64,000 nucleotides of DNA from Candidatus Bathyarchaeota archaeon (GTDB taxonomy: Archaea; Thermoproteota; Bathyarchaeia; Bathyarchaeales; DTEX01), in NCBI GenBank assembly GCA_963714275.1, contig CAVQNT010000004.1, positions 63,071 to 127,070 of the forward strand, given 5' to 3'. Positions 30,897 to 62,472 of this stretch are shown here, piece after piece. A program made the translations under genes and the position numbers. The notes beneath the pieces are model-generated. The model searched no databases. It worked only from the letters and a program-made list of their open reading frames with translations, and was not told where the DNA came from. Every line of letters begins with the position of its first letter. The first letter of the stretch is position 1.

Positions 30897-31475
30897 GTGG
30901 TTGAGTTGAAGAAAATCGTGAAGAACTATCGTGTTGTCTTTCCTACCCCTGCTGCTCTTGTAACCTCTGCTGATGAACAGGGAAAGCCTAACGTCGCTAC
31001 AGCCGGAGAGGTATACATGTTATCTCTTAATCCATTAATCGTTGCTGTCGGATTTAGGCCTGCAACATACACGAATAGACTTATCCATGCCACAAGGGAG
31101 TTCGTGGTCAATTTTCCTAAAAGTGAAATCTTGGAGCAAGTTGATTTTTGTGGATGTGTGTCAGGGAAATCGGTTGACAAGTTCACTGAGACGGGTTTAA
31201 CCCCACTTCCCGCCAAGTATGTGAAGCCCCCACTTGTTAAGGAGTGCCCAGTAAACATTGAATGTAAAGTCCTAGATGTAATACATTATCCCTATATGGA
31301 CCGAGATGTCTTCGCTGGAGAAACTTTGGCAGTCCATCTAGACGAAGAGATCATGGGCGAGGATGGTTTTGCCGATTTGACAAAATTTAAGGCGATAGCT
31401 TTTGCATCCAACAGTTACTTCCAACTTACAGGAGTACTCGAGCAATCCCACTTCAGTGTTAGAAAAAATGAATGA
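30897..31475 (+). CDS. Flavin reductase-like FMN-binding (split-barrel) protein
   Basis: 192 aa. Paralogous to 48122..48622 (shared ..FCG..SG..VDKF.ET.LTP....VKPP..KEC..NIEC). Confidence 0.75.
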   Translation: MVELKKIVKNYRVVFPTPAALVTSADEQGKPNVATAGEVYMLSLNPLIVAVGFRPATYTNRLIHATREFVVNFPKSEILEQVDFCGCVSGKSVDKFTETGLTPLPAKYVKPPLVKECPVNIECKVLDVIHYPYMDRDVFAGETLAVHLDEEIMGEDGFADLTKFKAIAFASNSYFQLTGVLEQSHFSVRKNE

Positions 31476-31562
31476 TAGTTTAAGATAAAGCACTAATGAG
31501 AATCAATATGCTATCACAGTGTGATGAATCAACGAACGAAGGACAAGCTAGCTCACTGGTGT

Positions 31563-32169
31563 TCAACCACCTAGAACCGTCGAGATCGCGTAACCTAATC
31601 CTATCCTGAACCTAATGGAGAGAGGAGAAATCCTGCCTGCGTAACCTGCTTTGCCAGCCTTGAGAGCCGCAAGAACCTTATCAACGTCTGGATCGTCCAA
31701 ATCAACCGTTGTGTACGCGTCACCAACAGAGGCTGTAGGGTGGGCTTTCCACCTTGTCTTGAGATGGCGTTCGAGTATGGCAGACTCGTAATAACAGCGT
31801 CAACCTTACACGGTTCACTATGCTGAGTATAGGTTGATTATCGTACCAAAAGACTCTATCATGTAGTATGTGAAGCCCTCCGAGAACCAAAGCGCAAATG
31901 TTTGCCCTCTGCTTGGAGATCGAAACACCATCGGATAGAATCTCCGCTTCAACTCCCTTTATGACCCCTGCATCATTCAAGGTGTTCAAATAAGTCTTAA
32001 GTTGACTTTTGGGCATTCTCTTTGGCAATTCGTGGAATTCATTGAAATGATCTGTAATTGCAAATATGTTCAGCCTTTTTGTTTGTGCTGTTTTAACAAC
32101 ATCCTTCACACTGCAAACTCCATCTGAGAAACTTCGAAAATACGCTGGCAACCTCCCAGAATTTTTCAC
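31563..32169 (-). pseudogene. PHP-domain phosphoesterase-like gene, degenerate (several frameshifts, N-terminal His motif absent)
   Basis: Track ORF 31720..32169 carries FSDGVCSVKDVVKTAQTKRLNIFAITDH. Alternative frames downstream read GDAYTTVDLDDPDVDKVLAALKAGKAGYAG.. to a stop at 31563. Confidence 0.55.
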
Positions 32170-32352
32170 ATGTTGTTGCTCTTAAAAAAGTTAGAAAACG
32201 AGCCTCTCTCAATAATATAGTTTTTTAATAAATTCGACCCTGCAAAAAACAGGGCTTCCCCCCAATATATCGTTGAGGTTTTGCCAAATCTTTCGCGTAT
32301 ACTGGATTATGAGGAGTCTACTAAAAACGTCTCTCAATAATACCGTACACAA

Positions 32353-32790
32353 TTATTTTGGTTTTTCTACTAACTGCCCATCCATCTCATAGTTAGTTGG
32401 TGGCATTTCTCTGGATGCTGGTTTAGGACGTGACCACTTATAAGTGATTGCTGAAGGTAAGTATCTTCTCTCATAACGGCAGTTTGGGTTTACACATCTG
32501 GCAAGAATTTCCCAAGAATGCTCGTTTTCTTTTTCCACTCTATGAGTGTAAGAGTATACTCTACGTCCACAGATGCATCGTGGGGGAAATGGAATGATTT
32601 GCTTCGCTAAGCCACAAAGCTTATCGAACTTTGATAGGAGGTCTCCTTTTTCCTGTTGTTCTAGTTGGATTTTCAGCATACGTTCAATGTCAGACCAATG
32701 AGCCTTGGGATTTTGCATTTTTAGTTCAGTAATGAGTCTATGTATTTCAACGATTTCTTCGTTTAGGACCCATTCTCTCGGGCGTTCCAA
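32353..32790 (-). CDS. Hypothetical protein with CxC/CxxC zinc-binding-like pairs
   Basis: 145 aa. PRCICGRR ... ARCVNPNCRY. No family recognised. Lies directly beside the cas1 remnant. Confidence 0.4.
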   Translation of the reverse strand: MERPREWVLNEEIVEIHRLITELKMQNPKAHWSDIERMLKIQLEQQEKGDLLSKFDKLCGLAKQIIPFPPRCICGRRVYSYTHRVEKENEHSWEILARCVNPNCRYERRYLPSAITYKWSRPKPASREMPPTNYEMDGQLVEKPK

Positions 32791-32844
32791 CTTTCCTTAA
32801 TTGCTTCATCGAATAAAGATTGTACTAACTCAGATTTAAGGCTC

Positions 32845-32980
32845 CAATCCAAAATTACATTTAGATAAGAGATAAACTATTGAAACCTTGATTAACGAAG
32901 AGGCTTTGTTATTCGCCAAATTTCTGAGACATGAACGAAAAACATGGACGCCGAGAGTTGCCAATCTAGAAAACCAATGA
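32845..32980 (+). pseudogene. cas1: Cas1 (casposase) 3'-terminal remnant no. 1
   Basis: 32885..32980 translates to TLINEEALLFAKFLRHERKTWTPRVANLENQ*. The intact Cas1 C-terminus is TLINEEALLFAKFLRNERETWIPRTVLP*. Nucleotide similarity continues weakly upstream, with an in-frame stop. There is no start codon and no N-terminal part. Confidence 0.8.
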
Positions 32981-33087
32981 CAGATTAGAGACATCAGCTA
33001 AGCTAGCGCGTGCTTTTGTTGATAGCTTCAGCTCACTGGCTTTGGCTGGATATAATAAGAAAACTAATTTAATCCTCAGGATTCTGT

Positions 33088-35067
33088 CTATGATCCTGTC
33101 AATATTGGAAGCATAAGTAAGGCGGTCATGCCTAGAAGCTTCATGAATATGAGGACAGATGGGCCTGCGACGTCTTTCAGCGGGTCTCCTACGGTGTCGC
33201 CAATTATTGTTGCCCTATGTGTGTCTGATTTCTTTCCTCCGTACAGTCCACTTTCAACTAGTTTCTTGGCATTGTCTAGTAGGGCGCCTGTATTGTTGAA
33301 GAAGAAGCCCAACATGGAAGCGGAAGCTATAGCCCCCATGAGCAACATTCCCAACGCGGTTGGACCGAAGAACATGCCCACAGCGATGGGAGTCGCTATT
33401 GAAATGAGTCCCGGCACCAACATTTTGCTTAGTGCAATTTTTGTTGCTATATCAACACATTTGGCATAATCAGGAGTACCTTTGCCCTCTTTTAGTCCAA
33501 CGATCTCCTTGAATTGGCGTCGTACTTCATCAACCATTCTGAAAGCCCCGTCGGCGGTCGCTCCTATCGTCAGAGAGGCTAATGGTAAAGGCAAGACTAC
33601 GCCCAGGAACAGTGCAGCAATGGGGTATGGAGATGCGACTGAGATTACAGAGATATTGGCTGTCGCGAAATAGGTTGCGAAAATTAAGAAGGCGGTAACT
33701 GTGCCTGATGCCATGGCATAGCCCTTGGTTGCAGCCTTCATAGTGTTGCCAACGGCGTCTAGAGAACTCAAGGTTTCAGAAGCTTGTACTGAGATTCCAG
33801 ACATTTCAGCTATTCCCGCAGCATTATCAATTATTGGGCCGAACGTATCAGCAGCCATAATGAACGCAATAGCAAAATCCGTGCCAATATTTGTTATGAC
33901 TAGTCCATAGAGAGACTCGCCAGTGAGCATGAAAGAAAGTACTACAGCAGCCAAAACTGCGATCATCGGAAGCAAGGGAGTTTCCAATCCAGTCGATATG
34001 CCAGTTATCAAGTTTATGGCAGGGCCTGCTTGCGAGGATTCAGCGACATGATGTACAGGCCCACGCCCCAGACCTGTATAGTGCAGTGTAACTAGGACAC
34101 AAACGAGTACTGCTGCAACACCAAGCAAACCTGCAAAGAATAGTGTCACATCATTCAAAAAAAACTTGGTCAAAAAGAACAAGCCAATCGAGCTGAGGAC
34201 GGCTGTAACCATGAGACCGATAACCAAAGATCCTGTGGCGCTTATCCCCTTCCACTGTCTAACTAAAGATATTCCAAACATGGAAGCTAGAACACCAACA
34301 GCTTCTAGGATGAATGGAAATACTACTCCATTGGGGCCGTATCTCGAAATGAAGAGAACACCCATCAACGAACCAGTTATTATGTCGTCACTAAAAGTCT
34401 GGAATAAATCTGAACCTCGCCCAGCGCAATCGCCTACGTTGTCGCCAACCAAATCGGCGATCACGGCCGGATTTCTCGGGTCATCCTCTGGAATCTCCAT
34501 TTCGATCTTACCCACCAAATCGGCTCCAACATCGGCTGACTTTGTATATATGCCCCCTCCGATTTGTGCAAACAATGCCGTGAGGCTTGCTCCAAATCCA
34601 AACCCTACAAGCGCTGAAATATCATTCAAGGCGGTTCGCAACAGGAATAGCGCAACAAGACTTATACCTGGAACCACCAGACCCATAACTGAACCTCCAA
34701 GGAAGCCCGTTCTCAAAGTTTCCCTTGGTGAAAGTACAGCAGCGTTTGCTGTTCTTACGTTTGTTCTTACTGCAACGTTCATGCCGATGTACCCTGCTAA
34801 TAAGGAGAGAAGGACACCACAAACAAAAGATAACGAAGTAGTCCAATTGAAAACGAAGAGAATTATTATAACTAACCAAGGAATGACAAGAATAATAGTT
34901 TTTAATTGTCTCTTAAGGTAGACGTTTGTTCCTATTACAATGTATCTACTCACTTCTCGCATGCGAGCTGTGCCAGAATCTTTTTTAAGAATCCAACGAG
35001 TGATATAAGACGCTGCCAAAATGGCAATCATCCCAACGCTGAAGGCAAACAAGAGTGGATCTGTCAT
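33088..35067 (-). CDS. hppA: Membrane-bound H+(or Na+)-translocating pyrophosphatase
   Basis: 659 aa, polytopic. GGIYTKSADVGADLVGK, DNVGDCAGRGSDLF, GDTVGDPLKD. Confidence 0.93.
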   Translation of the reverse strand: MTDPLLFAFSVGMIAILAASYITRWILKKDSGTARMREVSRYIVIGTNVYLKRQLKTIILVIPWLVIIILFVFNWTTSLSFVCGVLLSLLAGYIGMNVAVRTNVRTANAAVLSPRETLRTGFLGGSVMGLVVPGISLVALFLLRTALNDISALVGFGFGASLTALFAQIGGGIYTKSADVGADLVGKIEMEIPEDDPRNPAVIADLVGDNVGDCAGRGSDLFQTFSDDIITGSLMGVLFISRYGPNGVVFPFILEAVGVLASMFGISLVRQWKGISATGSLVIGLMVTAVLSSIGLFFLTKFFLNDVTLFFAGLLGVAAVLVCVLVTLHYTGLGRGPVHHVAESSQAGPAINLITGISTGLETPLLPMIAVLAAVVLSFMLTGESLYGLVITNIGTDFAIAFIMAADTFGPIIDNAAGIAEMSGISVQASETLSSLDAVGNTMKAATKGYAMASGTVTAFLIFATYFATANISVISVASPYPIAALFLGVVLPLPLASLTIGATADGAFRMVDEVRRQFKEIVGLKEGKGTPDYAKCVDIATKIALSKMLVPGLISIATPIAVGMFFGPTALGMLLMGAIASASMLGFFFNNTGALLDNAKKLVESGLYGGKKSDTHRATIIGDTVGDPLKDVAGPSVLIFMKLLGMTALLMLPILTGS

Positions 35068-35395
35068 AATAATTCCCTTAGATTCGTTTGGTTCCTTTGA
35101 CTATCCAGTAGCGCGCGCTCCGTAGAGGAGTTGGTCACATTTTTTCCCTTCCATGCGTTGGCTTTGTCAAAAGAAAGGATCCCCTTGATAAGGTTGTCTC
35201 CGAATGGTCCAAAACTGACTTATTAGTTATGGTCTTGAGGACTATGAAACCCGAGACCCAGTAGAAGTCTACCCCAAAGATTGTTTCACAGCATTAATAC
35301 AAAAATTAGCCAGGTAGCTCAGCTTCAAAGCCCTTAGAATTAATCTTTTGACGTTGAGGCTTACGACACTTTTTGGATTGGGCCTGATGCTTCCG

Positions 35396-35845
35396 CTATT
35401 TTTCGAAGACATCAGGAGTTGGGTAGTGATTTCGTCCTATTGCTTCAAGTATGTCGTCGGTGAGAGTTTTCTTGCTTAGGTATCTAGCGAAGTCTGTGGC
35501 GGTTATTATTCCAACCGACTTGTTATCCTTTATTACAGGAAGGCGTCGGATTTTCTTGTTGACCATTCTTCTAGCAGCTTCTTTAATCGGAGTTTCTGAA
35601 TCTATTACTCTGAGTGGGGTGCTCATCACATCTGAAACTCTAGTGTCCGCCGATTTTCCCTCCGCTAAGACTCTCCGTACAAAATCCCGTTCAGTGACGA
35701 TCCCGACGGGCGCATTGTTCTCTATGACCACCAAGTCGCCTACGTTATTCTGCGACATTAGGACTGCAGCGTCAATAATAGTCTTGTTAACATCAATGGT
35801 TACAACGTTCTTTGCCATTAAATCCTTGACTTTGATCGTCATCAC
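35396..35845 (-). CDS. CBS-domain pair protein
   Basis: 149 aa, two CBS repeats (VVTIDVNKTIIDAAVLM.., VGIVTERD, RLPVIKDNKSVGIITATD). Confidence 0.85.
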   Translation of the reverse strand: MMTIKVKDLMAKNVVTIDVNKTIIDAAVLMSQNNVGDLVVIENNAPVGIVTERDFVRRVLAEGKSADTRVSDVMSTPLRVIDSETPIKEAARRMVNKKIRRLPVIKDNKSVGIITATDFARYLSKKTLTDDILEAIGRNHYPTPDVFEK

Positions 35846-35933
35846 TTTTCAATAGTAATTGATCATATAAAAATTTTCCCCATCTTTGATTTTGATTTCT
35901 AGTATTGGACGTTGGGCAGTTTTTCGTGCTTCT

Positions 35934-36176
35934 AGCTAGCTATTTGTGTGTGTTTTTTGTTTGTGTTTTTTAGAGAGAGTGTATGTATGTGAGTGAATGA
36001 GAGAAGGAAAGCAAGAGCGTATAAGAGAATTAGTGTGTGTGGGGATTAAATTTTAATCTTTCTCTCTCTCTCGTACGTGTTCTCGTTCTTTCCCAGATAC
36101 TCCCTTGTATTCCCTCACTCCCACTTACGTATAGCGCGCGCGCACGCACGCACACAACAAGCACACGCACAAAAAA
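35934..36176. repeat. Left terminal inverted repeat (near-perfect core 36042-36176)
   Basis: 36042-36176 is the reverse complement of 41971-42105, with one mismatch (position 36051, the centre of GATTAAATTTTAATC). The outer part, 35934-36041, aligns to the right arm only with indels. Confidence 0.9.
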
Positions 36177-36324
36177 ACACTAGATTCTAGACACATTGAA
36201 CTGTGTATGTATACTTTGGTGCGGGCGGCGTAATTTGAACCGAAGTTTTGTTACCACCATGAAGACCACGCACATACCATATATAACTAGATAATACTTA
36301 TGTGACTTAGAAGGTTATATTGCT

Positions 36325-37134
36325 GTGCGAGTTCCAGAGGAAGTTCGCCAATGTGTTGCATTCATTGGTCTTCCTAACTCAACTGGTCAAGTGAGTTTTA
36401 CGGGTACTGCTTTCTTTGTAGCTATGCCTTTGAGTATAAAAGGTAGGTCGATTTGTTATTTAGTAACCGCTAAGCATGTTGCTGATAAGCTAGAAAACAA
36501 AATATCTTATCTCCGAATAAACACCAAAGACGGAAAATCAATGCCACTCCAACTTGATGAGGTAAGATGGTTTTCTCATCCTACTGATAGCTCGGTTGAC
36601 ATTGCAGTCTTACCCTACTCTCCACCTTTGAATGTTGAATACAAGTTTGTCCCAGTTGATCTGTTTCTCTCGGATGACATAATACAAAAAGAAAATATTG
36701 GTGTCGGCGATGAAGTATTTATTACGGGTCTATTTGCTCATGTGAGCGGCTCTCAAAGAAATCTTCCGATAGTACGAATGGGTAATATCGCCATGATGCC
36801 TGATGAAATCATTCCCACAGATCTGGGTAACATCGAGGCATATTTAATCGAAGCCAGATCTATTGGAGGCTTGAGTGGTTCTCCTGCTTTTGTTCGAGCG
36901 ATATCGGGACGTCGTTATTACTTCCTTGGACTAATGCATGGGCATTGGGAAATCCCTCCATATATGAAGAATGATTTATTGATGAATGAAGAACTTTTTG
37001 GAAAAGTTAATATGGGCATCGCAATTGTCATACCAGCAAAAAGGATATTAGAGGTTCTTAATCAGCCAGAATTGATTGCACGAAGAGAAAGGGCAGAAAG
37101 GAATTTAGAAAAGACTGATAAGAACACCCCTTAA
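36325..37134 (+). CDS. Trypsin-like (chymotrypsin-fold) serine protease
   Basis: 269 aa. Catalytic triad contexts LVTAKHV (His), SVDIAVL (Asp), GGLSGSPAF (Ser). Convergent with cas1; the two stop codons overlap in CTTAAG (37131-37134). Confidence 0.75.
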   Translation: MRVPEEVRQCVAFIGLPNSTGQVSFTGTAFFVAMPLSIKGRSICYLVTAKHVADKLENKISYLRINTKDGKSMPLQLDEVRWFSHPTDSSVDIAVLPYSPPLNVEYKFVPVDLFLSDDIIQKENIGVGDEVFITGLFAHVSGSQRNLPIVRMGNIAMMPDEIIPTDLGNIEAYLIEARSIGGLSGSPAFVRAISGRRYYFLGLMHGHWEIPPYMKNDLLMNEELFGKVNMGIAIVIPAKRILEVLNQPELIARRERAERNLEKTDKNTP

Positions 37135-38165
37135 GGCAAAACAGTTCTCGGAATCCATGTTTCCCTTTCATTCCTCAGAAACTTAGCGAACAGCAAGGCT
37201 TCTTCATTAATCAACGTATTCAGCGTTTGTCTCTTCCCAACCTTGATTCTCGGAATATCAACCATACGTTCAAACAATAACCCTAGAGCCTCAGCCAATT
37301 CATTAGTTTCATATTCGCATAAATGAATCTTTTTTCCCATTCTGAGATGCATCATAAAATCTGTTACAAGCACGAAGTCGTTCTTATGATACCTAGAACA
37401 GCGTTCTATCAATAAATCGTCTATGAGGTAACGGTACAATTCTTGGAAATCGCATACTAAGCTAGGCTTGCCAAACTGTACACTGTGCAAGAAGCCTAAG
37501 TAAGGTTCAAGTTTTGCCTTCAACAGCGCCTTATGAACTCTACATCGCAATACATAGTATCCAAAATTGAAAACGTTGTTTATTCCATCGTAAGCCTTGT
37601 ATGTCATTCTTCTTTTAGGTCTAATCTTTTCAGGAAATAAGCTGAAAATCTGGTTAAAGTAGTGTTCAGAAGACTTTCCTTCAAGACCATTAATTTTCCT
37701 TCTGAAAGATTCATTCCTAGACGATTCCAACCTTTCGATATGGCTTTCTAAATTTGGATCAATAGGCAATAAACCATATTTCCTTAAAACTCTCCTCTGT
37801 CCCTCAATTTTGCATAAAACTAATTGTTTAGTGATATAGACGCTCTTTCCATTCTTCAGAGCTTGATACTGCGCTATCCGAGTTTTGACATGACTATCGT
37901 CTTCAATGTTTTTCAGAACTGCTACAACCCTGTTTTTCTTTGTCATGATATAAGTGTCGATATTCCATAATGCAAGGTCAATTAAAGCGTCAACTGAAAC
38001 GTAATTTCCACTCCTGAGGATGCATTCGCCTATTTCCTTTTCAAAATGTGGATAACGAGTAATATTTCCCGTCTTATCTCGAGATTCAAAACAGCCTTCT
38101 CCCCTACCCAAATAAGAACCATAACCATCTAATGTCAATCGTAAGATTTTTGTACCACGAACCAT
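37131..38165 (-). CDS. cas1: Cas1 family integrase (casposase-like, solo)
   Basis: Intact 344 aa. LTLDGYGSYLGRGEGCF (N-terminal beta domain), LEGKSSEHYF, NNVFNFGYYVLRCRV, LEPYLGFLHS, PSLVCDFQELYRYLIDD (conserved E/H/D-E metal-binding set). Confidence 0.9.
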   Translation of the reverse strand: MVRGTKILRLTLDGYGSYLGRGEGCFESRDKTGNITRYPHFEKEIGECILRSGNYVSVDALIDLALWNIDTYIMTKKNRVVAVLKNIEDDSHVKTRIAQYQALKNGKSVYITKQLVLCKIEGQRRVLRKYGLLPIDPNLESHIERLESSRNESFRRKINGLEGKSSEHYFNQIFSLFPEKIRPKRRMTYKAYDGINNVFNFGYYVLRCRVHKALLKAKLEPYLGFLHSVQFGKPSLVCDFQELYRYLIDDLLIERCSRYHKNDFVLVTDFMMHLRMGKKIHLCEYETNELAEALGLLFERMVDIPRIKVGKRQTLNTLINEEALLFAKFLRNERETWIPRTVLP

Positions 38166-38249
38166 TATATCACCCTCTTTTCATCACATAATCATAACGC
38201 AAAAATAATTTATAAATCTTGTGATGCTAAAGTAATGAGGATGTAGTGA

Positions 38250-38408
38250 ATGAGTCTTAAACTGAAAAGAACCCTGAGTGAATCAGGGCGAACTTTAGTT
38301 CTCCGACTACCAAAAGATGTTGAACGCTCTCTTTCACTTAAAGCTGGAGACCAAATTCATATTTGGGTTGAGAATGGAAGAATCATCATCGAGCCAATAA
38401 CGAGCTAG
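38250..38408 (+). CDS. AbrB/SpoVT(MazE)-like DNA-binding small protein
   Basis: Not in the track (52 aa). MSLKLKRTLSESGRTLVLRLPKDVERSLSLKAGDQIHIWVENGRIIIEPITS, the swapped-hairpin pattern (v.iPk.i...l.l..Gd.v.i....g.iii.p). Divergent from cas1 across an 84-bp AT-rich spacer. Confidence 0.65.
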   Translation: MSLKLKRTLSESGRTLVLRLPKDVERSLSLKAGDQIHIWVENGRIIIEPITS

Positions 38409-38415
38409 TTTCAAA

Positions 38416-38949
38416 TTAGTCTCCGATTTTAATAATGTCCGCAGTATAAGACATTTGAAGTTCATTTAATGTAACTATAGTCATTAACTCCTGCCACTCG
38501 ATCTCACCCAACGAAAGATATTCTCCAGAACCACCATTCTTTAATTCAAACTCAATTTCAGCAACAAAAAGCCCAAGAACCAATCTACAAGAACCGTGAC
38601 TTCGCATTAGACTACGGTATAGAAAGAAACTCTTGAGTTTAAGACTTATATTCAAAGTAGTTTCCAACCACTGCTTCACTTGAACCAAATCTGCAAAATT
38701 GAATTTAACAAAAATAGATTTCCTCATAAATTGTATTAGAACAGAGTAATCTGGATACTTGAAGAAAGTGTAACTTCTAAATGGGATTCTGAAATAGGCT
38801 ATTATTGATTTCTCTCCTGAATTACCTTTATGCGTTACATTATCTTTTATTAAAATGTACACACCTTCTTTGTTCGTAGGCAATTCGATCTCTGTTGAGC
38901 TCTCAAAAGTCACATGCCCGCCTTTGTATACTTCTTTCAATTTGACCAC
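38416..38949 (-). CDS. Hypothetical protein (element cargo)
   Basis: 177-aa ORF, no recognisable motif. Confidence 0.4.
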   Translation of the reverse strand: MVKLKEVYKGGHVTFESSTEIELPTNKEGVYILIKDNVTHKGNSGEKSIIAYFRIPFRSYTFFKYPDYSVLIQFMRKSIFVKFNFADLVQVKQWLETTLNISLKLKSFFLYRSLMRSHGSCRLVLGLFVAEIEFELKNGGSGEYLSLGEIEWQELMTIVTLNELQMSYTADIIKIGD

Positions 38950-39003
38950 CGAAAAACCGACTCGGTTGCAGATACAATATCTTCAGATTATGGTGATATA
39001 AAG

Positions 39004-39219
39004 ATGCGATTGGGTTTAACCGAGAGGCTGAAGGCAGATGCTCTGCGATTTCTAAATCAAACAACATTAGCGATCAGTGTCTCGGATTTAGCCAAAAACC
39101 TGAATGTTTCGTGGTCGACTGCGCGTCAAATCCTAACCGAATTAACGCTTGAAGGAAGAATTGAGTGCCAGAAGACCACCAACTGGAAAATCTACAAACC
39201 TAAAGAAAATGATAGGTAG
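39004..39219 (+). CDS. Winged helix-turn-helix DNA-binding protein
   Basis: Likely start is the Met at 39004 within track ORF 38914..39219. ISVSDLAKNLNVSWSTARQILTELTLEGRIECQKTTNWKIYKP. Confidence 0.6.
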   Translation: MRLGLTERLKADALRFLNQTTLAISVSDLAKNLNVSWSTARQILTELTLEGRIECQKTTNWKIYKPKENDR

Positions 39220-39237
39220 TGTCAGGGAGGCTAAGAT

Positions 39238-39561
39238 GTGAAGGCTGAAAACGAGAATTTAAATGAAATCCTTTGTACAACGGATGAGGACAGAAAAATC
39301 AAACAATATTTGAATGAGCGACTTGGACCAGAACCTGTAGTTGCAGGTTCTAGACGTAGGTGGGATTTCCTACAAAGATGTGCTTTTTACATCTATTCAG
39401 AGAAAGAAGTGTCTTTTGTCTACATAGTTAAGTGGTTTGCCAAAAACGGTGAATGCCTGAAGGTCAGAACGATTCTGGAAGATTACATTCAATACCTAAA
39501 CACTCTGGGAATTGTTGAGTTTAATGTAGGTACAAAGACAGTCAGGTGGAAGCAACAATGA
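39238..39561 (+). CDS. Hypothetical protein with wH-like C-terminus
   Basis: 107 aa. TILEDYIQYLNTLGIVEFNVGTKTVRW. Confidence 0.4.
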   Translation: MKAENENLNEILCTTDEDRKIKQYLNERLGPEPVVAGSRRRWDFLQRCAFYIYSEKEVSFVYIVKWFAKNGECLKVRTILEDYIQYLNTLGIVEFNVGTKTVRWKQQ

Positions 39562-40079
39562 GGTTTAATTTCAGGATTGTGAAGTTCGGATGGACATTTT
39601 TCTTTATGCTGGCTAAGACTCAGAGTTTGGAAGGCTTAACGTCTCTGCTGTCAGATGGCAGACATATAGTAATGTGGGATCTTGAAAACTGCAATCTAGA
39701 AGAAGCTTCAAGGATTTTGATAAGGGTTCAAAGGAAAAATAATCTTAGCCACATTTACATCGTAAGTGATGCCGAAGGCTCTTACCGCGCATGGTGTTTT
39801 TCAAGTGTTACTTTCAAAAAGTTCCTCCGCATCCTTGTAGACTCTCTTGAAATCATAGATTATTCGTTTTTCTATTACACGGTCAAAAGATTAAAGGCAA
39901 CATTGAGAACGAGCAATAAAAAGAAAAGACCGCCTCAACGATTGGTACGCGTTCTAGAATCTTACCCTACAGATTTTCCCATTAAAATGGAGAAAGTCAT
40001 CTATGACACTGGCTTAGTGAAAAGAGGTTACACTATTTCTTTAGGTGATCGGCTTGGATCAATTTCCAGAAGCGTTTAA
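39546..40079 (+). CDS. Hypothetical protein (possible replication-related, speculative)
   Basis: 177 aa (likely start 39558). Acidic HIVMWDLEN and IYIVSDAEGSYRAW segments loosely recall the DxD / sGxGxH spacing of AEP prim-pol proteins, but the His is absent. Confidence 0.35.
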   Translation: MEATMRFNFRIVKFGWTFFFMLAKTQSLEGLTSLLSDGRHIVMWDLENCNLEEASRILIRVQRKNNLSHIYIVSDAEGSYRAWCFSSVTFKKFLRILVDSLEIIDYSFFYYTVKRLKATLRTSNKKKRPPQRLVRVLESYPTDFPIKMEKVIYDTGLVKRGYTISLGDRLGSISRSV

Positions 40080-40348
40080 GCGATTTGAAAAAGTCGTAGA
40101 CACAGAAAACATAAAAAGCTTTGCAAAGTTGCAGTTAGCTTTCCGTTCTTGGGCAGGACGGAATTGGAAAGGTACGCCAAAGCAAAAAGAAGACTCTTAT
40201 GGCTGAAGCCCAAAAACATGGAATCCTGGCTCCGCCTGAAAGAGTGATTGCAACTTGGAGACGTGAAGATGTCAGAGTCGGAACGAAATCTCAAGTTAGA
40301 TACCGAGACATTAAATCAGGGCGCTTCATAAAGAACCCTTTCCAGTAG
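40045..40348 (+). CDS. Possible small gene split by a frameshift (40045..40206 and 40199..40348)
   Basis: Two short protein-like frames, FPEAFKRFEKVVDTENIKSFAKLQLAFRSWAGRNWKGTPKQ and MAEAQKHGILAPPERVIATWRREDVRVGTKSQVRYRDIKSGRF. Neither is in the track (under 60 aa). Confidence 0.25.
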
Positions 40349-40551
40349 TGTCTAAAATCAAATGATACACACAAAAACCCCAAAACAGCGCTTTAGCAAT
40401 GACATTGACATTGTCAAAGGCACTGCTAAGGGCCTTTAAATTGCGTCTATACTGTCTAGAAACTCGATTACTGTCTCTAAATGTCTAGAGATTGGAGTTT
40501 TTGTCTCAGAAAATGTTTTAAAGTCTTAATTTTAAGTAAAATATGATAGAA

Positions 40552-40722
40552 ATGTCTCAACTGACTGAAGTAGAACTTGCTGAAAGGATTATTCTCTTTC
40601 ATGATACCCAGTCACTTAGTTTTCGAAAAATTTCAAGGAAATTGACTGATGAAGGCATACAAGCGAGTAAAGACAAGGTTCGCAAGATCTATCTCCGATA
40701 CAGAGCTGCTAAAGGAATCTGA
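40552..40722 (+). CDS. Small HTH protein
   Basis: 56 aa, not in the track. MSQLTEVELAERIILFHDTQSLSFRKISRKLTDEGIQASKDKVRKIYLRYRAAKGI (resolvase/terminase-small-like HTH). Confidence 0.45.
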   Translation: MSQLTEVELAERIILFHDTQSLSFRKISRKLTDEGIQASKDKVRKIYLRYRAAKGI

Positions 40723-40741
40723 GATAGACCAGAAAGCGGTT

Positions 40742-41296
40742 ATGGACGAAGATCTTAAGGCGTTAGTTGAAAAAGAAAAGGAAGCTCAGAAAAAAGTCGA
40801 GCTTGCAAAAATCAAGAATGAAAAAAGAAGAAACATTTTAGATTTGCGCATTAAGGAGTTGGACTGGAGCCTCGAAGACCGTGAAAGGCTCTTTGCGGAT
40901 AGGCAAGAGCTCTTTTGGCTTATGAAGGAGATTTTGTGTACTCATGAGCCAGCTCTCTGGTTGCGGTTATTGGAATTTTCCAATGAAGAAAATGGGCTGG
41001 TAGATATTGTCCAAGAAGTGATCGGCAGCCAGACTCTCTATGAAGAGATGAGAGTAAGAAATGAAAAGGACAATGTGGAATATCTCCTAAATCATCACGT
41101 TGTATTAAGTATCGAAGACTGGTTGGTTAGTAAGCAAAGCTTCAAGTCAGAGGGATTACCAGAAAAAGCGAAAGGATCAGGGATCACAGAAGGAAGCGAC
41201 GAGGAAGATATTGTTTTAACGATCCCAGTTGATAACAATGTTCGGCGAATATTTCACTATTACAACGTTAAAAGGTCAATGTCATCTAAGTCATAG
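40742..41296 (+). CDS. Hypothetical coiled-coil protein
   Basis: Probable start is the Met at 40742 within track ORF 40649..41296. Charged K/E-rich N-terminus. Confidence 0.4.
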   Translation: MDEDLKALVEKEKEAQKKVELAKIKNEKRRNILDLRIKELDWSLEDRERLFADRQELFWLMKEILCTHEPALWLRLLEFSNEENGLVDIVQEVIGSQTLYEEMRVRNEKDNVEYLLNHHVVLSIEDWLVSKQSFKSEGLPEKAKGSGITEGSDEEDIVLTIPVDNNVRRIFHYYNVKRSMSSKS

Positions 41297-41441
41297 AGGA
41301 AGCATGTGCTAGTTGTATTGTCCTTCAGCCCAAAAAAAGATATTCTGGTAGGTGCTAACTTAACATAAAATATAGGTGCCAACTTCATGCTATCTCACTA
41401 TTTTATTATGGAAAACGACGGTAATAATATCGTGTAAATGG

Positions 41442-41957
41442 ATGGCTGTTGTTGAGATTAGTTGTCCTCGATGCGGTTCCGTTTCTCATTTAAAAAATGA
41501 AAAAACTAACGAGTATCGTTGTGACAATTGTAGCACGACGTTCGTACTTGTAGATACAATGAAGAAAGAAGTTGTTCGAGACACCAAAAGACATAATTGC
41601 CCTACTTGTGGGCGACCAGTATCTAGAACAGAAGCTTATGTCTGCACAGAATGCGGAACTGAGGACTTATGCAAGAATTGCTTGGTCGAAATTAATAATA
41701 AAATTGTCTGTATGGAATGTGCAAAAAAAGAAGGAAAAGCGTGCTATATTTGTGGCAAGAAAGCATGGTGGCATTGTGGTGTCTGTGGGCATACGGCATG
41801 TCGCAACCACGCTGACAGATTTAACTTAAAAGGTAATTACTTGTGTCCTAATTGTGGTGCCGTATGTAAAAATTGTTATGTTGAGAAAGTCGATTTTCTC
41901 GGTAAAACCTTCTACTGTAAGAAATGTGGGACAAAATTAACGCGTGGGAAATTATAA
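41442..41957 (+). CDS. Multi-zinc-ribbon protein (about 8 CxxC pairs)
   Basis: Probable start MAVVEISCPRCG at 41442 within track ORF 41376..41957. Repeated CxxC...CxxC units run throughout. Confidence 0.5.
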   Translation: MAVVEISCPRCGSVSHLKNEKTNEYRCDNCSTTFVLVDTMKKEVVRDTKRHNCPTCGRPVSRTEAYVCTECGTEDLCKNCLVEINNKIVCMECAKKEGKACYICGKKAWWHCGVCGHTACRNHADRFNLKGNYLCPNCGAVCKNCYVEKVDFLGKTFYCKKCGTKLTRGKL

Positions 41958-41970
41958 AACTAATTAGATC

Positions 41971-42181
41971 TTTTTTGTGCGTGTGCTTGTTGTGTGCGTG
42001 CGTGCGCGCGCGCTATACGTAAGTGGGAGTGAGGGAATACAAGGGAGTATCTGGGAAAGAACGAGAACACGTACGAGAGAGAGAGAAAGATTAAATTTTA
42101 ATCCCAAACCCAAACATATACTCTTATTTCCAATCATTCTCTCATTCTCTCTCTTATTACACATACACACAAAACTAAGTT
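41971..42181. repeat. Right terminal inverted repeat (near-perfect core 41971-42105)
   Basis: Reverse complement of 36042-36176 (134/135). The outer 42106-42181 aligns with the left arm only with indels. Track ORFs 41964..42332 and 41977..42267 are low-complexity translations of the repeat. Confidence 0.9.
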
Positions 42182-42335
42182 GGATTGTTGAGTTGTGCAT
42201 TGAAAGAACTTTATTGAGAATGTTAATGAACAGTATGTGCAATATCAATGCATTCAGTTCAAAGTAAAAAATAAAACAAAGAGAGTATCTTGAAATCAGA
42301 CAGCAAGTATTATCACCCTCTCTCCGAGACACTTA

Positions 42336-43046
42336 GTGTCTAGCACGCGCTATATCACTAGTCAGCTCAAATACTCAAAGCACTACGCGAAGAATCTTAT
42401 ACAAAAAGGTTTCAATGATTATGTGTTCGGTGAGAGCATGCCTATTAGAGAAAATGTGTCACCACAGAAGACCTTGACGGGAAAAAGGGTTTACTTGAGG
42501 CCTTTTTGTATAAATGATTTACCTTACATTCAGAAGTGGTCGAATGACGATGAACTTAGAAAACTAACAGGTGCAATTGCGCCGATGAGTAACGCTGAGA
42601 CTAAGAAGTGGTACGAGGATTTGCTTACTGACAAGGACCGGATGTGGTTTGCGATTGTCCTTAAAAAAGGTGACCGCGTAATAGGGGAGGCTGGATTGTT
42701 GAGAATGTTTAGACCTTGGCGAAATACGGACATGACCATAATAATTGGAGAAAAGGACGCTTGGGGAAAAGGATATGGAACTGAGACTGGTCGTCTGCTC
42801 CTTGACTATGCCTTCAAACAACTGGGTTTTCATAGGATTTCGGTAGGGGTGGTCGGCTTCAACCAGAGAGCATTGAGATTTTGGGAGAGTCTTGGTTTCA
42901 AGAAGGAAGGCATCGAGAGAGATGAATATTACTACGACAACGAATACAGCGACGGCATCATGATGAGTATTTTAGAAGATGAATTCAAGAAGGCACACGA
43001 GACTGCTAGCGCGCGCGCTCTGCGCTACCACCACCACCAAAATTGA
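42336..43046 (+). CDS. GNAT family N-acetyltransferase (RimJ/RimL-like)
   Basis: VYLRPF..DL..I..W, VIGEAGL, WGKGYGTE, RALRFWESLGFKKEG. The true start is probably the internal Met at 42438. Confidence 0.82.
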   Translation: MSSTRYITSQLKYSKHYAKNLIQKGFNDYVFGESMPIRENVSPQKTLTGKRVYLRPFCINDLPYIQKWSNDDELRKLTGAIAPMSNAETKKWYEDLLTDKDRMWFAIVLKKGDRVIGEAGLLRMFRPWRNTDMTIIIGEKDAWGKGYGTETGRLLLDYAFKQLGFHRISVGVVGFNQRALRFWESLGFKKEGIERDEYYYDNEYSDGIMMSILEDEFKKAHETASARALRYHHHQN

Positions 43047-43189
43047 CGGAAAGCTTGCACATTGACATTGCTGCATTGAATGTACTGAAAAGCAATAAGC
43101 AAAGTAGACATGCAGAATGCAAGAATCAAAAGGGTATTTTATGCGTATATCCTTTCGAGTAGTTAGCTAGCTTAGCTAATTTAAGTAAC

Positions 43190-43690
43190 TTGTTTATAAT
43201 ATTTAAGAAAAGGGGTGGAGATATGATGGAAGAGTTCAGATTAGGAAATGAAGAAAAGATACTTTTAGATACTGTTACTGATGAGGATTATAAGGTTAGA
43301 CTTAAAAACAGAGTAGTTGTTACCAATCAACGATGCGTTTTCTTTAGAGTTTATGAAGTGCATCACAAAGCCAAAGCCATAAATCCCGCCACAGGAAAAA
43401 GCGAGGAAATAAAGCCCGAATTCAGAATAGAACAAGAAATAAAATTGAATAATATTAAGGAAACTTTTGCTCATTATTTTAATGGAAACGTATGCATAAA
43501 ATTTAAACTAACGAATGGACAGACAGCAATTTTTCCAATTTTTTCCTATTTAGATAGGGAATTAAGTTCCGCCTTAGATGTTTTAACACAAACAGCCTTC
43601 TCTGGGTCTGGTAGTCTTATGTTAATGATGATGGATGATATGTTTTTAGTTAATAGATTAGTGAGTTACATTAACAAATTGATAAAATAA
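43190..43690 (+). CDS. Hypothetical protein (AT-rich, possibly PH/GRAM-like)
   Basis: 166-aa ORF. No catalytic motif recognised. Confidence 0.35.
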   Translation: MFIIFKKRGGDMMEEFRLGNEEKILLDTVTDEDYKVRLKNRVVVTNQRCVFFRVYEVHHKAKAINPATGKSEEIKPEFRIEQEIKLNNIKETFAHYFNGNVCIKFKLTNGQTAIFPIFSYLDRELSSALDVLTQTAFSGSGSLMLMMMDDMFLVNRLVSYINKLIK

Positions 43691-44256
43691 AGGCGATGAT
43701 TTTTAGCGCGCGCTACGGATGAGAGCGATGACTCCCCTGCAATTAGTCTAATTGAAGAATCAATTGCTAGCTAGCTTTCTTCAAACCTTAATGTTTTTTC
43801 TTTCAGTTTCTTAGCTGAGCTAAAGGGATTTTAGGTGTAAGGTTTTGTTACATATGGGGAAGTTCCGAATCTGCCCCTTAATATCCATAATTATTCAGAG
43901 GAATTGAACGAAATATTACAAAAATTAACCTAATTCTGTTTTCTTTTCAGATTATTGGCATCCTGTAAGGGTATCTAAAAGAGTAAGATCGCCCATGTTT
44001 GCCATAGATCCCCAAGCCATCCTCTTGGTGATCTATATTTGAGTTGATTAAGAAGTTATTTGGTTAGAGACTTTTTTACGTTGCAGAAAGACATAAATCT
44101 GTATTTTTCTGTTAGTTATAGATGTAATAATTTTGGGGGGTAGTCACTACGTACTTCACAGTTTTAACAATATTTCTCGTCGCTATAGGTGCCGTGACTG
44201 GCGAAATTGGAAGCTTACAGCGACGGAACATTGTACATAAGAGGTAGAGGGATGGA

Positions 44257-48622: not shown

Positions 48623-48813
48623 TGATGCGATATGTTAACATCTGAAAAATTGGGGGCAAGAATAGTTCTTGGTAACCTTCCATTTAGCTAGTTAGCTGCA
48701 AACATCTCTAGTCATATTAATGGATGAAGGAGTTATAGTCAAAGAAACATCACGTTTTAAGAGCGAAAAGCTGAAAGTAAATGACGAACATGTGGGCTGA
48801 TGAGTGACTGATT

Positions 48814-59995: not shown

Positions 59996-60663
59996 TCCAC
60001 CCCATTTCTCTTTTTGTGCGTGTGTGCATTAAAATTAATCTTTTTCTCTCAGACTATAGACTATCGATAAGTTTTTGAGCGAATCATATATAGAAGCCTA
60101 TTATCTGGGTGATTTTGAATGTCTGAAGGCGAAAAGGATTATTCTGATTTCATTAGTCACTTGGGAAGTATGAGTCACATTTTTTTTATTTTTTACAGGC
60201 TTTACTTTGACAGTGCTCGTAATATTCATCACTGGATTTTCTGACCCAAGCCCATTATTAATACAAGTTACATTGTTTCTCCTGTGTTTTCTACTTGATT
60301 TGTTTATCTTCTTACTGGGATGGATAAGCAACCTTGACATCTATTACATCAAAGACATACCTCCATACACAAAAGGAATGAGGATATGTAAGCTTTCTCG
60401 AATACTTAGGCATCAGCCTATTTGGCATAATAGTAGCTTTATTGTTTATTTTCTACAACCTTATTTTTCTGGCTTCAGCATCATTTACAATGTTTGCAGT
60501 TTTTCTCATCTTGAGTTACTTCTATATAACGAAACCACAAATGGAAATACGGAAAAAACAATCCTCAAAATCTAACCAGTAAAAATATTTTTATTTAGTG
60601 AGCTAGGCAATTATAAACAAGTTGCTTATATTAGTGAGTTGGCTGAACGGTTCGGGGTGAACC

Positions 60664-60798
60664 TATGACCACAGTAATGTTTGGTCTTGAATTTGTTCTT
60701 TTCCTAATTTGTTTGTTCATTTTCCTTTCTTCAATCATTGAGGTCTTCAATTATTATAGGGAACAGAAAGAAAGAAAAAAAAGTCAGAGGAAAAGATA
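60664..60798 (+). CDS. Possible small single-TM protein (44 aa)
   Basis: Not in the track. MTTVMFGLEFVLFLICLFIFLSSIIEVFNYYREQKERKKSQRKR. The nearby ORF 60207..60575 also looks like a frameshifted membrane protein. Confidence 0.25.
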
Positions 60799-60856
60799 AA
60801 ACAATTAGAGGAAACGTTGAAGCGATTAGAGAATGCCGACTCTTAAACTTTCGTGG

Positions 60857-60946
60857 TCAGAGTTGAACAATTCTTGGAATCCATGTTTCTCGTTCGCCAC
60901 GAAGGTATTTAGCGAACAAAAGAGCCTCTTCACAAATTAGCGTTTC
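60857..60946 (-). pseudogene. cas1: Cas1 (casposase) 3'-terminal remnant no. 2
   Basis: Translates to ETLICEEALLFAKYLRGERETWIPRIVQL*. The intact Cas1 reads NTLINEEALLFAKFLRNERETWIPRTVLP*. Homology stops exactly at an AGCTCAGCT motif (60948-60956). Confidence 0.8.
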
Positions 60947-61183
60947 AAGCTCAGCTAGTCTTTATACTAGCTTCATAAGTCTAAAATAGGGTGCATCTCA
61001 CACTTCAGAGGTAAATGTGATGTCAGTTATGACCACCTTGAAGGCGGAAATAGTGGAAAGAGATCTGAGGCTTAAAGCCAAGAAGTTTTGTAGTCTCGCA
61101 GATACATGCCTACACATAGGTCGGAACGAATGTGCTCAATGCCTTCAAAGCTCTCTTAAAGTTATTCTTCCTCCCCAGACTAC

Positions 61184-61924
61184 CTAAGTCAGCTTAGCTG
61201 AGGTGCTCAGTGAATCCAAGCCATCTTTTTGGAAATTTTGAATCTGTTTAATTTGAACATCGATCTTCAAAATTTCTTCCCGATTGTGTTGCATGCTTTT
61301 TTTAGCGTCTTCTTTGTTTCTTTCAAGCTTCGGTAGTAGATTAGCAATCTCTTCAATCTTCTTTCTTTTTTCTACTATCTCTTTTTCTAAAAGCTTCTTT
61401 TTTTCAAGTTTTTCTTGTATGTCATTTTGAAGGCTTTCATTTTCATCTTCTAGCTTTGGAAAAAGCTCGGTTACTTCAGTGATTCTTTCTTGCATCTGAT
61501 CAATATCTTTCTCTAAAAATTCTTTTTTTTCATCGAGTTTTGGAATTGACTCCGATATTGACTCGATCTTTGTCTTTATTCCCTCTCTAATTCTCTCATA
61601 CTCACCTAATATGTTTTTTAGCTGCGCTAACGTCTTATTTACATCCGTATTATCACGTATAATTTTTTCCCCGGATTTTTGAGCATTAAGAATCCCTTCT
61701 ATCAGCTCCTCTTTATGCCCCTTCTTTGAGATTCCGAGGCTAGAAGCCATCTTCCACAGTTCAGGCATCGACATCTGTAAGAATTTTTCTCTTTCAGAAG
61801 GTTTATTGGACATCTGAGGCTGTTCTTCATATTCTTGTTGCTCAGCTTCGTCCAACCATCTTTCCATATTTCTTTCAGTAGCATCCATTTGCTCTTCAGA
61901 CTTTTTTTCCTTAAATAAACCCAT
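61184..61924 (-). CDS. Coiled-coil protein with SAP/Rho-N-like motif
   Basis: 246 aa. MPELWKMASSLGISKKGHKEELIEGIL, followed by a long K/E-rich coiled coil. Confidence 0.45.
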   Translation of the reverse strand: MGLFKEKKSEEQMDATERNMERWLDEAEQQEYEEQPQMSNKPSEREKFLQMSMPELWKMASSLGISKKGHKEELIEGILNAQKSGEKIIRDNTDVNKTLAQLKNILGEYERIREGIKTKIESISESIPKLDEKKEFLEKDIDQMQERITEVTELFPKLEDENESLQNDIQEKLEKKKLLEKEIVEKRKKIEEIANLLPKLERNKEDAKKSMQHNREEILKIDVQIKQIQNFQKDGLDSLSTSAKLT

Positions 61925-62088
61925 TTATATCGCCTACGCTGACATTAAATAAAAAAAGATATTAGAATTATGAATACAGAGTAAGTATTCACACACCATA
62001 TTTCAAAAAATGTAATATTTATATGAAATATACATTTTATCAAGATATATAAAACCTAGAAAAGTAAAATAAAAATCCAGAAGCTCAG

Positions 62089-62307
62089 CTAGTTAGAAAA
62101 ATTTTTACCAAACTTAGACATTAACGAAAGACCTTGTTTATAGACTCTTTTTACATTGAAGTTCCTGTCGAAATGAACCTTAATCACTTCACAATCGGGA
62201 TTTGGACATATAAAATCTCGTTTCTGTCTACGTAATATTGAGCCGCACGATGGGCATTTTGGCTCAGCCTTTCTCAATTTTAAAACCCCATAAATGGAAT
62301 GAAACAA
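62089..62307 (-). CDS. Small zinc-ribbon protein
   Basis: 72 aa. CPSCGSILRRQKRDFICPNPDC. Confidence 0.45.
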   Translation of the reverse strand: MFHSIYGVLKLRKAEPKCPSCGSILRRQKRDFICPNPDCEVIKVHFDRNFNVKRVYKQGLSLMSKFGKNFSN

Positions 62308-62472
62308 AGGATATTAGGGTTTCGAACATTAGCAAGCTAGTATTTAGGAAGGAAGGAATTAAAATTTAATGCACACCACCAACCACCCAAGGTGTCGGGC
62401 CTAAAAAGGACTGATGTCTGGACGAAATTACAAAGCCTATGCATGGTAACTATGCATTTTTTGTTTTATTAA

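Follow-up and report, generated by a model that had tools for sequence, protein, structure and literature searches.

A 64-kb window of the Candidatus Bathyarchaeota contig CAVQNT010000004.1 (64,000 nucleotides; "the window" denotes this whole stretch) carries, besides an intact Cas1 transposon of ~6 kb (the resident element, 36044..42103), the tail of another cas1 gene lodged between two host genes, the open reading frame (ORF) ORF145 and hppA. We propose that this tail, hereafter relic 1 (32849..32980, plus strand), is probably the decayed cas1-proximal tip of an element of a second lineage, which would have been cut back to a host promoter by deletion and partially overwritten before an inversion turned hppA around. 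Its source appears to be a family of Cas1 transposons abundant in Bathyarchaeia, equipped with terminal inverted repeats (TIRs) and lacking PolB. The preliminary description of this region had seen here the scar of a second, diverged casposon: a second, diverged Cas1 element it does appear to be, but not a casposon in the strict sense, given the missing PolB. Taken alone, relic 1 is an ordinary pseudogene fragment and a useful marker: the 64-kb window has been invaded by no fewer than three lineages of a single family of Cas1 transposons, with targets that appear to have been reused and old copies that appear to have been trimmed and even overwritten.

Relic 1 is a 5'-truncated cas1 pseudogene that covers Cas1 residues ~305-342, followed by a divergent tail. 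With the intact resident Cas1 as query (344 aa, 37131-38165, minus strand), tblastn over the window aligns 32849-32962 with residues 305-342 (66% identity, E-value 5e-11), blastn aligns 32867-32956 with the intact cas1 (76.7% identity, E 3e-13), and the relic scores 54.7 bits compared to a maximum of 18.1 among 200 shuffles of the region. These three results support both the homology and SIGNIFICANCE of relic 1. The peptide that had been noticed at 32885..32980 as nearly matching the Cas1 C-terminus is confirmed (32885-32977, plus strand, translates as TLINEEALLFAKFLRHERKTWTPRVANLENQ, with a stop at 32978-32980), as is the weaker, stop-containing homology described further upstream: it extends over 12 codons to ~32849 and holds an in-frame TAA at 32873-32875, so that the frame is open from 32876. 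The catalytic residues E162, H227 and D239 all lie upstream of the relic start (~residue 305) and are therefore all missing. Without catalytic residues or a start codon, and with an in-frame stop, relic 1 is predicted to be debris, inert as a protein; at most it would act as spacer or promoter-proximal DNA for ORF145.

The divergence of relic 1 also points to its origin. Over 26 clean codons, 19 of 78 bases (24%) differ from the resident cas1, distributed 5/3/11 over the three codon positions; nine codons differ by synonymous changes only and five alter the amino acid, in line with the earlier impression that about a quarter of positions had diverged, many of them synonymously. The variant residues of relic 1 (His, Lys, Thr and the -IANL tail) are present in intact Cas1 proteins such as P0106, P0103 and P0046. 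Given this third-position bias, and given that the variant residues are known from other intact Cas1 proteins, relic 1 appears to derive from a lineage other than the resident cas1. The two genes would have diverged while both were still coding and under purifying selection.

Its later history can be read from a related contig, L094, which matches the window from ORF145 across the host-relic junction with a host flank 97.3% identical. ORF145 is a host gene for a Zn-ribbon protein (32353-32790, minus strand) that together with ~50 nt of conserved upstream DNA spans 32353..32841; the nucleotide homology of distant ORF145 relatives stops at 32839-32843, and the conserved upstream DNA must contain its promoter. 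Relic 1 begins 8 nt beyond this conserved DNA. In L094 the relic translates as PKLHLGKRQTIETLINEEALLFTKFLRDEREAWNPRIVFV up to its stop codon, past which come 88 nt of C/T-rich terminal repeat, then the duplication ATTAAATTTTAATC and then the leader GGGTTTGGG (GGGTTTGGGATTGGG), an end that the element-end model recognises with an E-value of 8e-8. At this same junction the cas1 3' end thus points outward to the terminus, the orientation that had first been proposed for relic 1. Mismatches between L094 and the window are few through 32864 (14/525, 2.7%) and then rise abruptly to 22/92 (24%) over 32865-32956, the best change point being 32865 (Fisher p 4e-11); past 32956, L094 has no homology to the window. 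Neutral decay of the relic part is ruled out because third codon positions of ORF145 differ by merely 2.1% between L094 and the window, compared to 21/88 in the relic; the probability that neutral decay would give 21/88 is 1.5e-16. The simplest reading is that the junction was inherited once and that relic 1 from 32865 on was later replaced by another cas1 allele, while independent truncated insertions at the identical point are less likely. Given the 24% mismatch to L094 compared to 2.7% in the flank, relic 1 would not be a passive fossil: it appears to have been overwritten after the junction formed.

Downstream of its stop, relic 1 leads into a spacer (32981..33056, plus strand) that lacks repeat-like strand skew where L094 has its TIR, and that contains AGCTAAGCTAGC at 32996-33007. 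The spacer is followed by a possible, weak degenerate element tip (33057..33075, plus strand) made of AAGAAAA, which would be the last bases of a terminal repeat, and CTAATTTAATCC, a partial target-duplication motif. The sequence reported there as a terminal module is thus present, though it resembles an element end only marginally. A gap-free position weight matrix (PWM), built from 18 ends with the window's own left out and scoring its two true ends at 47 bits, reaches at best -11.4 near relic 1 (rank 1070 of 127,938 positions), and nhmmer finds a correctly oriented match at 33067-33078 with 1.1 bits (E 0.09 in a search space of 220 nt). Gapped local alignment of 32981-33079 with 12 real ends chose 33057-33075 every time. 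The observed score was reached by 1 of 300 shuffles for L049 (the best) and 5 of 300 for L040, by 12-18 of 300 for L094, L087, L018 and the window's own two ends, and by 1-156 of 300 overall. The distance from the relic stop to the motif is also similar, 83 nt compared to 88 nt in L094. The last three bases of the module (TCC, 33073-33075) fall inside a 9-10-bp repeat at an inversion breakpoint, which cuts it. A terminal module in the window is consequently possible, marginal and unproven: if solo-TIR remnants are defined by one recognisable repeat at a known target, the window shows a marginal tip at 33057-33075 and its L094 counterpart a clear one.

The breakpoint belongs to a 2.2-kb inversion that carries hppA. 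In contig L087 (97.8% identity), positions 18-2164 correspond to window positions 35216-33070 in reverse and positions 2153-2884 to 35233-35966 in forward orientation. The left border lies at 33073..33082 (TCCTCAGGAT) and its partner at 35233-35241 (TCTTGAGGA), which together form a 9-10-bp imperfect inverted repeat. The L087 order appears to be ancestral since the more distant relatives L088 and L090-L093 show it as well, with hppA and the CBS gene convergent. The window arrangement is nevertheless real, as L089, the contig with the same gene order, is collinear with 32614-35833 at 99.0% identity; this independent contig also contains the relic 1 sequence (99% identity), and both orientations of hppA exist in nature (L087 versus the window and L089). 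The placement of relic 1 "upstream of hppA" thus holds by coordinates only: relic 1 faces the hppA 3' end, and does so only because hppA is inverted here. In the comparison of hppA flanks with relatives, suggested along with that placement, the inversion came to light and no empty site was found. We also considered that hppA and the CBS gene could be cargo of the dead element, an idea that was rejected: in relatives these genes lie among housekeeping genes (Usp, S6e, eIF2-gamma, CdhD, Lon) and no element ends are found.

How could these observations combine? In the scenario that we favour, an element, its cas1 3' end turned toward the terminus, would have occupied the space between ORF145 and hppA. 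A deletion starting near Cas1 residue 305 would then have eliminated the distal part of the element together with its end, halting at the ORF145 core promoter and leaving ~40 codons and the terminal repeat, a state that would persist in L094. Later, the relic from 32865 on would have been swapped for another cas1 allele, most simply by recombination or gene conversion with a later copy, and in the window lineage the terminal repeat would have been lost or scrambled. Finally, the 2.2-kb inversion between the 9-10-bp inverted repeats would have flipped hppA, bringing its 3' end toward relic 1. The loss would hence exceed the mere loss of an interior that had been supposed, since both the distal end and all that lay between it and Cas1 residue ~305 are missing, and relic 1 directly adjoins the conserved ORF145 promoter region. 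The order of events is drawn from three related contigs, and most comparison contigs are short. Several points weigh against this scenario: (i), no more than ~25 nt separate the inferred crossover from the junction, a short distance for homologous recombination; (ii), the first ~16 nt of relic 1 (32849-32864) are weakly Cas1-like, and two independent truncated insertions at the site are possible; (iii), the 83 nt past the relic stop are not repeat-like, though L094 has its terminal repeat there; (iv), nhmmer and PWM searches of the window revealed for the relic 1 element neither a distal end, nor a clear proximal terminal repeat, nor an empty site; and (v), simple deletion by itself fails to account for a strong bias toward C-terminal cas1 fragments, to which we now turn. 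A left end for the relic 1 element was also sought between ORF145 and the neighbouring PHP-domain gene, and none was found.

The fragment bias emerges from the family as a whole. After removal of duplicates, 173 loci comprise 44 full-length cas1 genes, 53 fragments with the C-terminus only and a single fragment with the N-terminus only (binomial p 6e-15). The loci are not phylogenetically independent and most come from a genome scan with one peptide pattern per protein half; as the patterns were drawn from both halves, the bias does not come from ascertainment alone. The fragments start at variable points (residues 81-326), most with a stop shortly upstream and with no consistent start codon. 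This 53:1 C-terminal excess is a countable signal on the mechanism of transposition or decay. Among side observations on these junctions, a cluster of truncation points at Cas1 residues 214-226 may reflect a deletion hot spot, and the junctions of L070, L074 and L079 abut (GC)n or (GT)n tracts that resemble the inner ends of terminal repeats.

An alternative that would produce such a bias directly is abortive one-ended insertion, in which copying or transfer would begin at the cas1-proximal terminus, Cas1 would join that end only to the target and host repair would seal the incomplete other end, so that truncation would date from insertion and not from a later deletion. 5'-truncated LINE copies offer a model: they have one fixed end and variable truncation, and truncated copies outnumber full-length ones. 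The fixed end and variable truncation are alike here, but the elements are DNA elements with inverted repeats and Cas1, with no reverse transcriptase and no evidence of target-primed synthesis. One-ended insertion is suggested by the 53:1 ratio and the variable start points, by loci such as L049, L060 and L094, where the proximal end is found and the distal end is not detected, and by L063, a further locus with proximal ends only, where five ends share a single orientation. L063 (6683-19125, the five ends within 13 kb and none opposite) and L027 (7121-7459, two ends 300 nt apart, again none opposite) indeed look like arrays of one-ended remnants. Yet the window and L094 show one junction with two alleles, which is unexpected from random truncation; L020, L050 and L062 keep the distal repeat joined directly to cas1, as internal deletions do, and a second relic in the window (relic 2, below) lies in a shell that has both ends. 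For relic 1 itself we consider one-ended insertion unlikely, deletion followed by allele replacement remaining our preferred explanation.

Retention of relic 1 for a function is more doubtful still, and we regard it as very improbable. The segment could serve ORF145 as promoter or spacer DNA, or yield a C-terminal Cas1 piece that would inhibit incoming casposases in the manner of truncated transposase inhibitors. In favour of this, relic 1 starts upstream of ORF145 at a distance of 8 nt from its conserved promoter region, many longer fragments in the family are open for 110-190 codons, and L094 has an ATG-started Cas1 C-terminal ORF of 80 codons. The frame of relic 1, in contrast, is interrupted by a stop, lacks a start codon and is open for 31 codons only, and most fragments meet a stop a few codons upstream and have no consistent start. 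Its nucleotides also appear unconstrained, as ~42-46% of third positions differ among cas1 3' copies; for the same reason, the cas1 3' end is unlikely to conceal a DNA site acting in cis. A promoter and terminator scan around relic 1 stayed at background level, although its patterns are bacterial consensus and thus carry little weight for an archaeon, and no RNA-family signal was found with Rfam (no credible match in 31000-44000). The idea that a tRNA or another known RNA could be the target, or account for a function, was likewise rejected, the window containing no tRNA.

Displacement of the gene end by another element recombining into the cas1 3' end, as occurs at att sites in tRNA genes, was rejected. 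The window does contain three copies of the ~90-nt cas1 3' segment (resident cas1, relic 1 and relic 2), and nearby elements in relatives carry integrase-like genes. Relic 1, however, has the opposite orientation to the resident cas1, and host genes as well as the terminal repeat and target duplication of the resident element stand between the two. Relic 2 is located upstream of cas1 instead of downstream, and past the stop codon the copies have nothing in common. Lastly, chance similarity or an independent small domain, for which only the short length of the segment speaks, is refuted by the E-value and shuffling results above, by the identity of the segment with the Cas1 C-terminus in 44 full-length proteins (TIGR00287 covers it to residue 335), by its occurrence elsewhere solely in Cas1 fragments, and by the stop and missing start of relic 1.

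The resident element shows what an intact member of the family looks like. It is bounded by an exact 15-mer target duplication, GATTAAATTTTAATC (36044-36058 and 42089-42103, both on the plus strand, the only two occurrences in the window), and by TIRs of 118 nt (36059-36176 and 41971-42088) that begin TTTCTCTCTCTC. GATTAAATTTTAATC is near-palindromic, and it is the central base that identifies both copies as direct and not inverted. The inverted repeat as a whole (36042-36176 and 41971-42105) is 135 nt long and 99% complementary, and similarity extends out to 35991 and 42151. Strand-skewed flanks that resemble the terminal repeat are indeed found outside the target duplications (35918..36043, mirrored at 42104-42190); they are probably the arms of older insertions at the same target, which suggests that the current element landed between them. 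Inside, cas1 (37131-38165, minus strand; Pfam Cas_Cas1 3e-41, TIGR00287 1.6e-40) is accompanied by a 269-aa ORF (36325-37134, plus), an AbrB-like gene (38250-38408, plus), an unannotated 177-aa ORF (38416-38949, minus), a helix-turn-helix gene (38914-39219, plus), an ORF at 39238-39561 (plus), the p177 gene (39546-40079, plus), an ORF at 40649-41296 (plus) and a Zn-ribbon gene (41376-41957, plus). The AbrB/MazE-like gene (52 aa) adjoins the unannotated ORF at 38416-38949 on the opposite strand, and the two may be a toxin-antitoxin pair. In the resident Cas1, E162, H227 and D239 are invariant across 40 homologues. The cas1 model covers residues 10-335 of 344, which leaves no room for an extra C-terminal domain. 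Its best solved relative is the CRISPR Cas1 4n06 (1.7e-20), followed by the Methanosarcina mazei casposase 6opm (3.7e-13). No PolB was matched by Pfam or NCBIfam among the ORFs of the element or the large ORFs of the window; the largest ORF besides cas1 within 36059-42088 has 269 aa. The element does not qualify as a CRISPR adaptation module, since neither a cas2 (Pfam and NCBIfam on neighbouring ORFs) nor a regularly spaced repeat family (window repeats) was found.

A search for further copies of the intact cas1, which had been proposed for the whole genome and was run on the window, confirmed relic 1 and revealed an additional one that the earlier note had missed. Relic 2 (60857..60958, minus strand) encodes LAELETLICEEALLFAKYLRGERETWIPRIVQL up to a stop; its core (60866-60949, minus) corresponds to Cas1 residues 315-342 (tblastn 82% identity, E 7e-9; blastn E 1e-5). 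Its differences fall 8/4/13 over the codon positions, and its closest relatives are other Cas1 lineages, e.g. P0062. Relic 2 is enclosed in a degenerate shell of 2.3 kb (60027..62371), with a left end at 60027-60050 (CATTAAAATTAATC/TTTTTCTCTC, preceded by GTGCGTGTGTG from 60016) and a right end at 62346-62370 (GGAAGGAAGG/AATTAAAATTTAAT, then GCACACCACC to 62381), and with ORFs at 60207-60575 (plus), 61184-61924 (minus, coiled coil) and 62089-62307 (minus, Zn-ribbon). Both shell ends show recognisable tips of a target duplication and of a terminal repeat; they rank 7th (left) and 6th (right) of 127,938 positions in the PWM scan and are oriented correctly as a pair, with an nhmmer match at 60021-60050; the cas1 tail points to the left end, ~820 nt off. 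This copy thus appears to be an internal-deletion derivative with both ends kept. Such derivatives are familiar from non-autonomous DNA transposons (Ac/Ds derivatives, precursors of miniature inverted-repeat transposable elements), in which internal breakpoints vary and the termini are kept. The relic 2 shell, L020, L050 and L062 are alike, while relic 1 departs from this type: it has no distal end and abuts the conserved host promoter, and a one-sided 53:1 loss would not be predicted. In the PWM scan, the next positions after the true ends (51591-51622 and 5079-5110, both plus, 3rd and 4th with 16 and 15 bits) could be lone ends or chance matches.

Related elements were found by homology, as exact-sequence look-ups of the window Cas1 and hppA gave no match; nearly all come from Bathyarchaeia genomes assembled from metagenomes, and metagenomes hold more than 2000 Cas1 homologues. 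Ten other loci have terminal repeats of 73-187 nt, and 10 other elements are flanked by direct repeats of 12-15 bp; that the duplications are direct follows from the non-palindromic copies in L001, L012, L013 and L018. Integration thus occurs with a 14-15-bp target duplication at sites like GATTAAANTTTAATC, usually beside G/T-rich GTTTGGGTTTGGG. GTTTGGG-rich DNA of the GTTTGGGTTTGGG type is indeed seen on at least one side of most elements (e.g. 42104-42116 here, 1845-1862 in L094 and 2946-2958 in L087), and may be a leader-like target determinant. The same target appears to be reused: beside the CBS gene, L087 holds a different element (GGATTAAAATTTAACC/TTTTTCTTCTTTAC...). This TIR-bounded element (2940-3911 of L087) has an ORF with similarity (E 1.5e-5) to the N-terminal SAM-like domain of phage integrases. 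PolB is absent from 13 other complete elements (3.9-8.7 kb), none of which has an ORF longer than 470 aa, and is not among the precomputed Pfam matches within 10 kb on either side of the L001 cas1. A single fragmentary match in IMG/VR gave no sign of a viral nature of the elements.

We therefore refer to the family as casposon-like: it would not be a casposon in the strict sense, because all casposons are stated to carry PolB (PMC4046053) and because the solved casposase is no closer relative of its Cas1 than a CRISPR Cas1 is. The family shares much with casposon families 1-4 (PMC4046053, PMC9939771): these are archaeal, a Cas1-family integrase is the sole recombinase, their TIRs measure tens to hundreds of bp, and specific targets are reused with 14-15-bp duplications, casposases being known to make duplications of 15 bp (PMC9939771). 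It differs in several respects: neither the resident nor the 13 other complete elements have PolB, there is no HNH nuclease, the 344-aa Cas1 has no room for the extra C-terminal domain and scores better against 4n06 than 6opm, the target is a near-palindromic intergenic 15-mer instead of a tRNA or ef-2 gene end, and the constant partner is a protein of 165-177 aa. Casposons return to the same sites, where they form tandem arrays or leave single terminal repeats behind (PMC4779613, PMC6563490); the solo-TIR remnants and tandem arrays of Methanosarcina (PMC4779613) in particular resemble the situation here, with old remnants at a preferred target, repeated use of the site and dead copies beside active ones, but what remains here is part of the integrase gene, whether or not a terminal repeat is attached, and there is sequence evidence of later overwriting by another allele. 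Integration is also reminiscent of CRISPR leader-repeat integration by Cas1-Cas2 (PMC9939771), where a partly palindromic unit is duplicated beside an upstream determinant and the site is regenerated, but cas2, a repeat array and spacers are all missing here; Bathyarchaeota have been reported to lack CRISPR-cas loci (PMC12669027). The family is probably undescribed: a literature search, with most subscription journals outside its coverage, yielded neither an account of Cas1 transposons without PolB nor one of casposons from Bathyarchaeia. If the lack of PolB holds, a family with the mechanical hallmarks of casposons minus the polymerase behind the term "self-synthesizing" bears on how Cas1 integrases travel and replicate, and a wider pool of Cas1 elements could be a possible source of CRISPR adaptation modules.

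The constant partner, p177 (165-177 aa), is the only gene that constantly accompanies cas1, in at least 13 other loci with 43-67% identity. It has 226 database relatives, all without a name, and no sequence match in Pfam, NCBIfam or the PDB. Its AlphaFold model (mean pLDDT 80.6) shows weak (E ≥0.075) and recurrent similarity among solved structures to PrimPol/archaeo-eukaryotic primase domains and viral origin-binding domains, and among viral models to uncharacterised proteins of archaeal filamentous viruses (E 6e-4 to 4e-3). A role of p177 in replication is thus a lead, not a finding. A bolder and rather speculative idea would link it to the fragment bias: the cas1 tails could result from a directional process at the cas1-proximal terminus, either one-ended integration or recombinational renewal, in a PolB-less Bathyarchaeia family that relies on PrimPol- or Rep-like p177. 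If true, this process would be the force behind cargo exchange, local inversions and hot spots of integration, with relic 1 as one snapshot.

Around relic 1, ORF145 has relatives in 111 metagenomic contigs (63-95% identity) and no Pfam or NCBIfam match. We considered ORF145 as an element gene and rejected this, as it is absent from 86 Cas1 loci and conserved in the 111 other contigs. In the window, ORF145 carries a 1-nt insertion (32790-32811) just past the ATG used in L094 and L095, so it starts at a downstream TTG or is disrupted. The adjacent PHP-domain gene (31720-32169, minus) encodes 149 aa compared to 201 aa in L088, and may be truncated. Debris of mobile elements lies near ORF145 homologues in several lineages (L094, L095, L128/L130, L139, L173): L094 has two Cas1 fragments and a SIR2-like gene, L128/L130, L139 and L173 have further Cas1 relics, and L095 has what appears by eye to be the C-terminus of a tyrosine recombinase. 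Three inverted-repeat pairs near the relics (I2, I5 and I10) were judged to be chance or promoter-like similarity.

Finally, the motif AGCTAAGCT, which had been pointed out after the relic stop, is indeed present at 32996-33004 but is not element-specific: it represents a variant form of the palindrome TAGCTAGCT, which shows enrichment in the intergenic DNA of the window (24 matches compared to 11.3 expected; none of 100 shuffles reaches 24). Examples of TAGCTAGCT lie at 35933-35942, 43160-43173, 43764-43777 and 48685-48697, and the palindrome recurs in related contigs.

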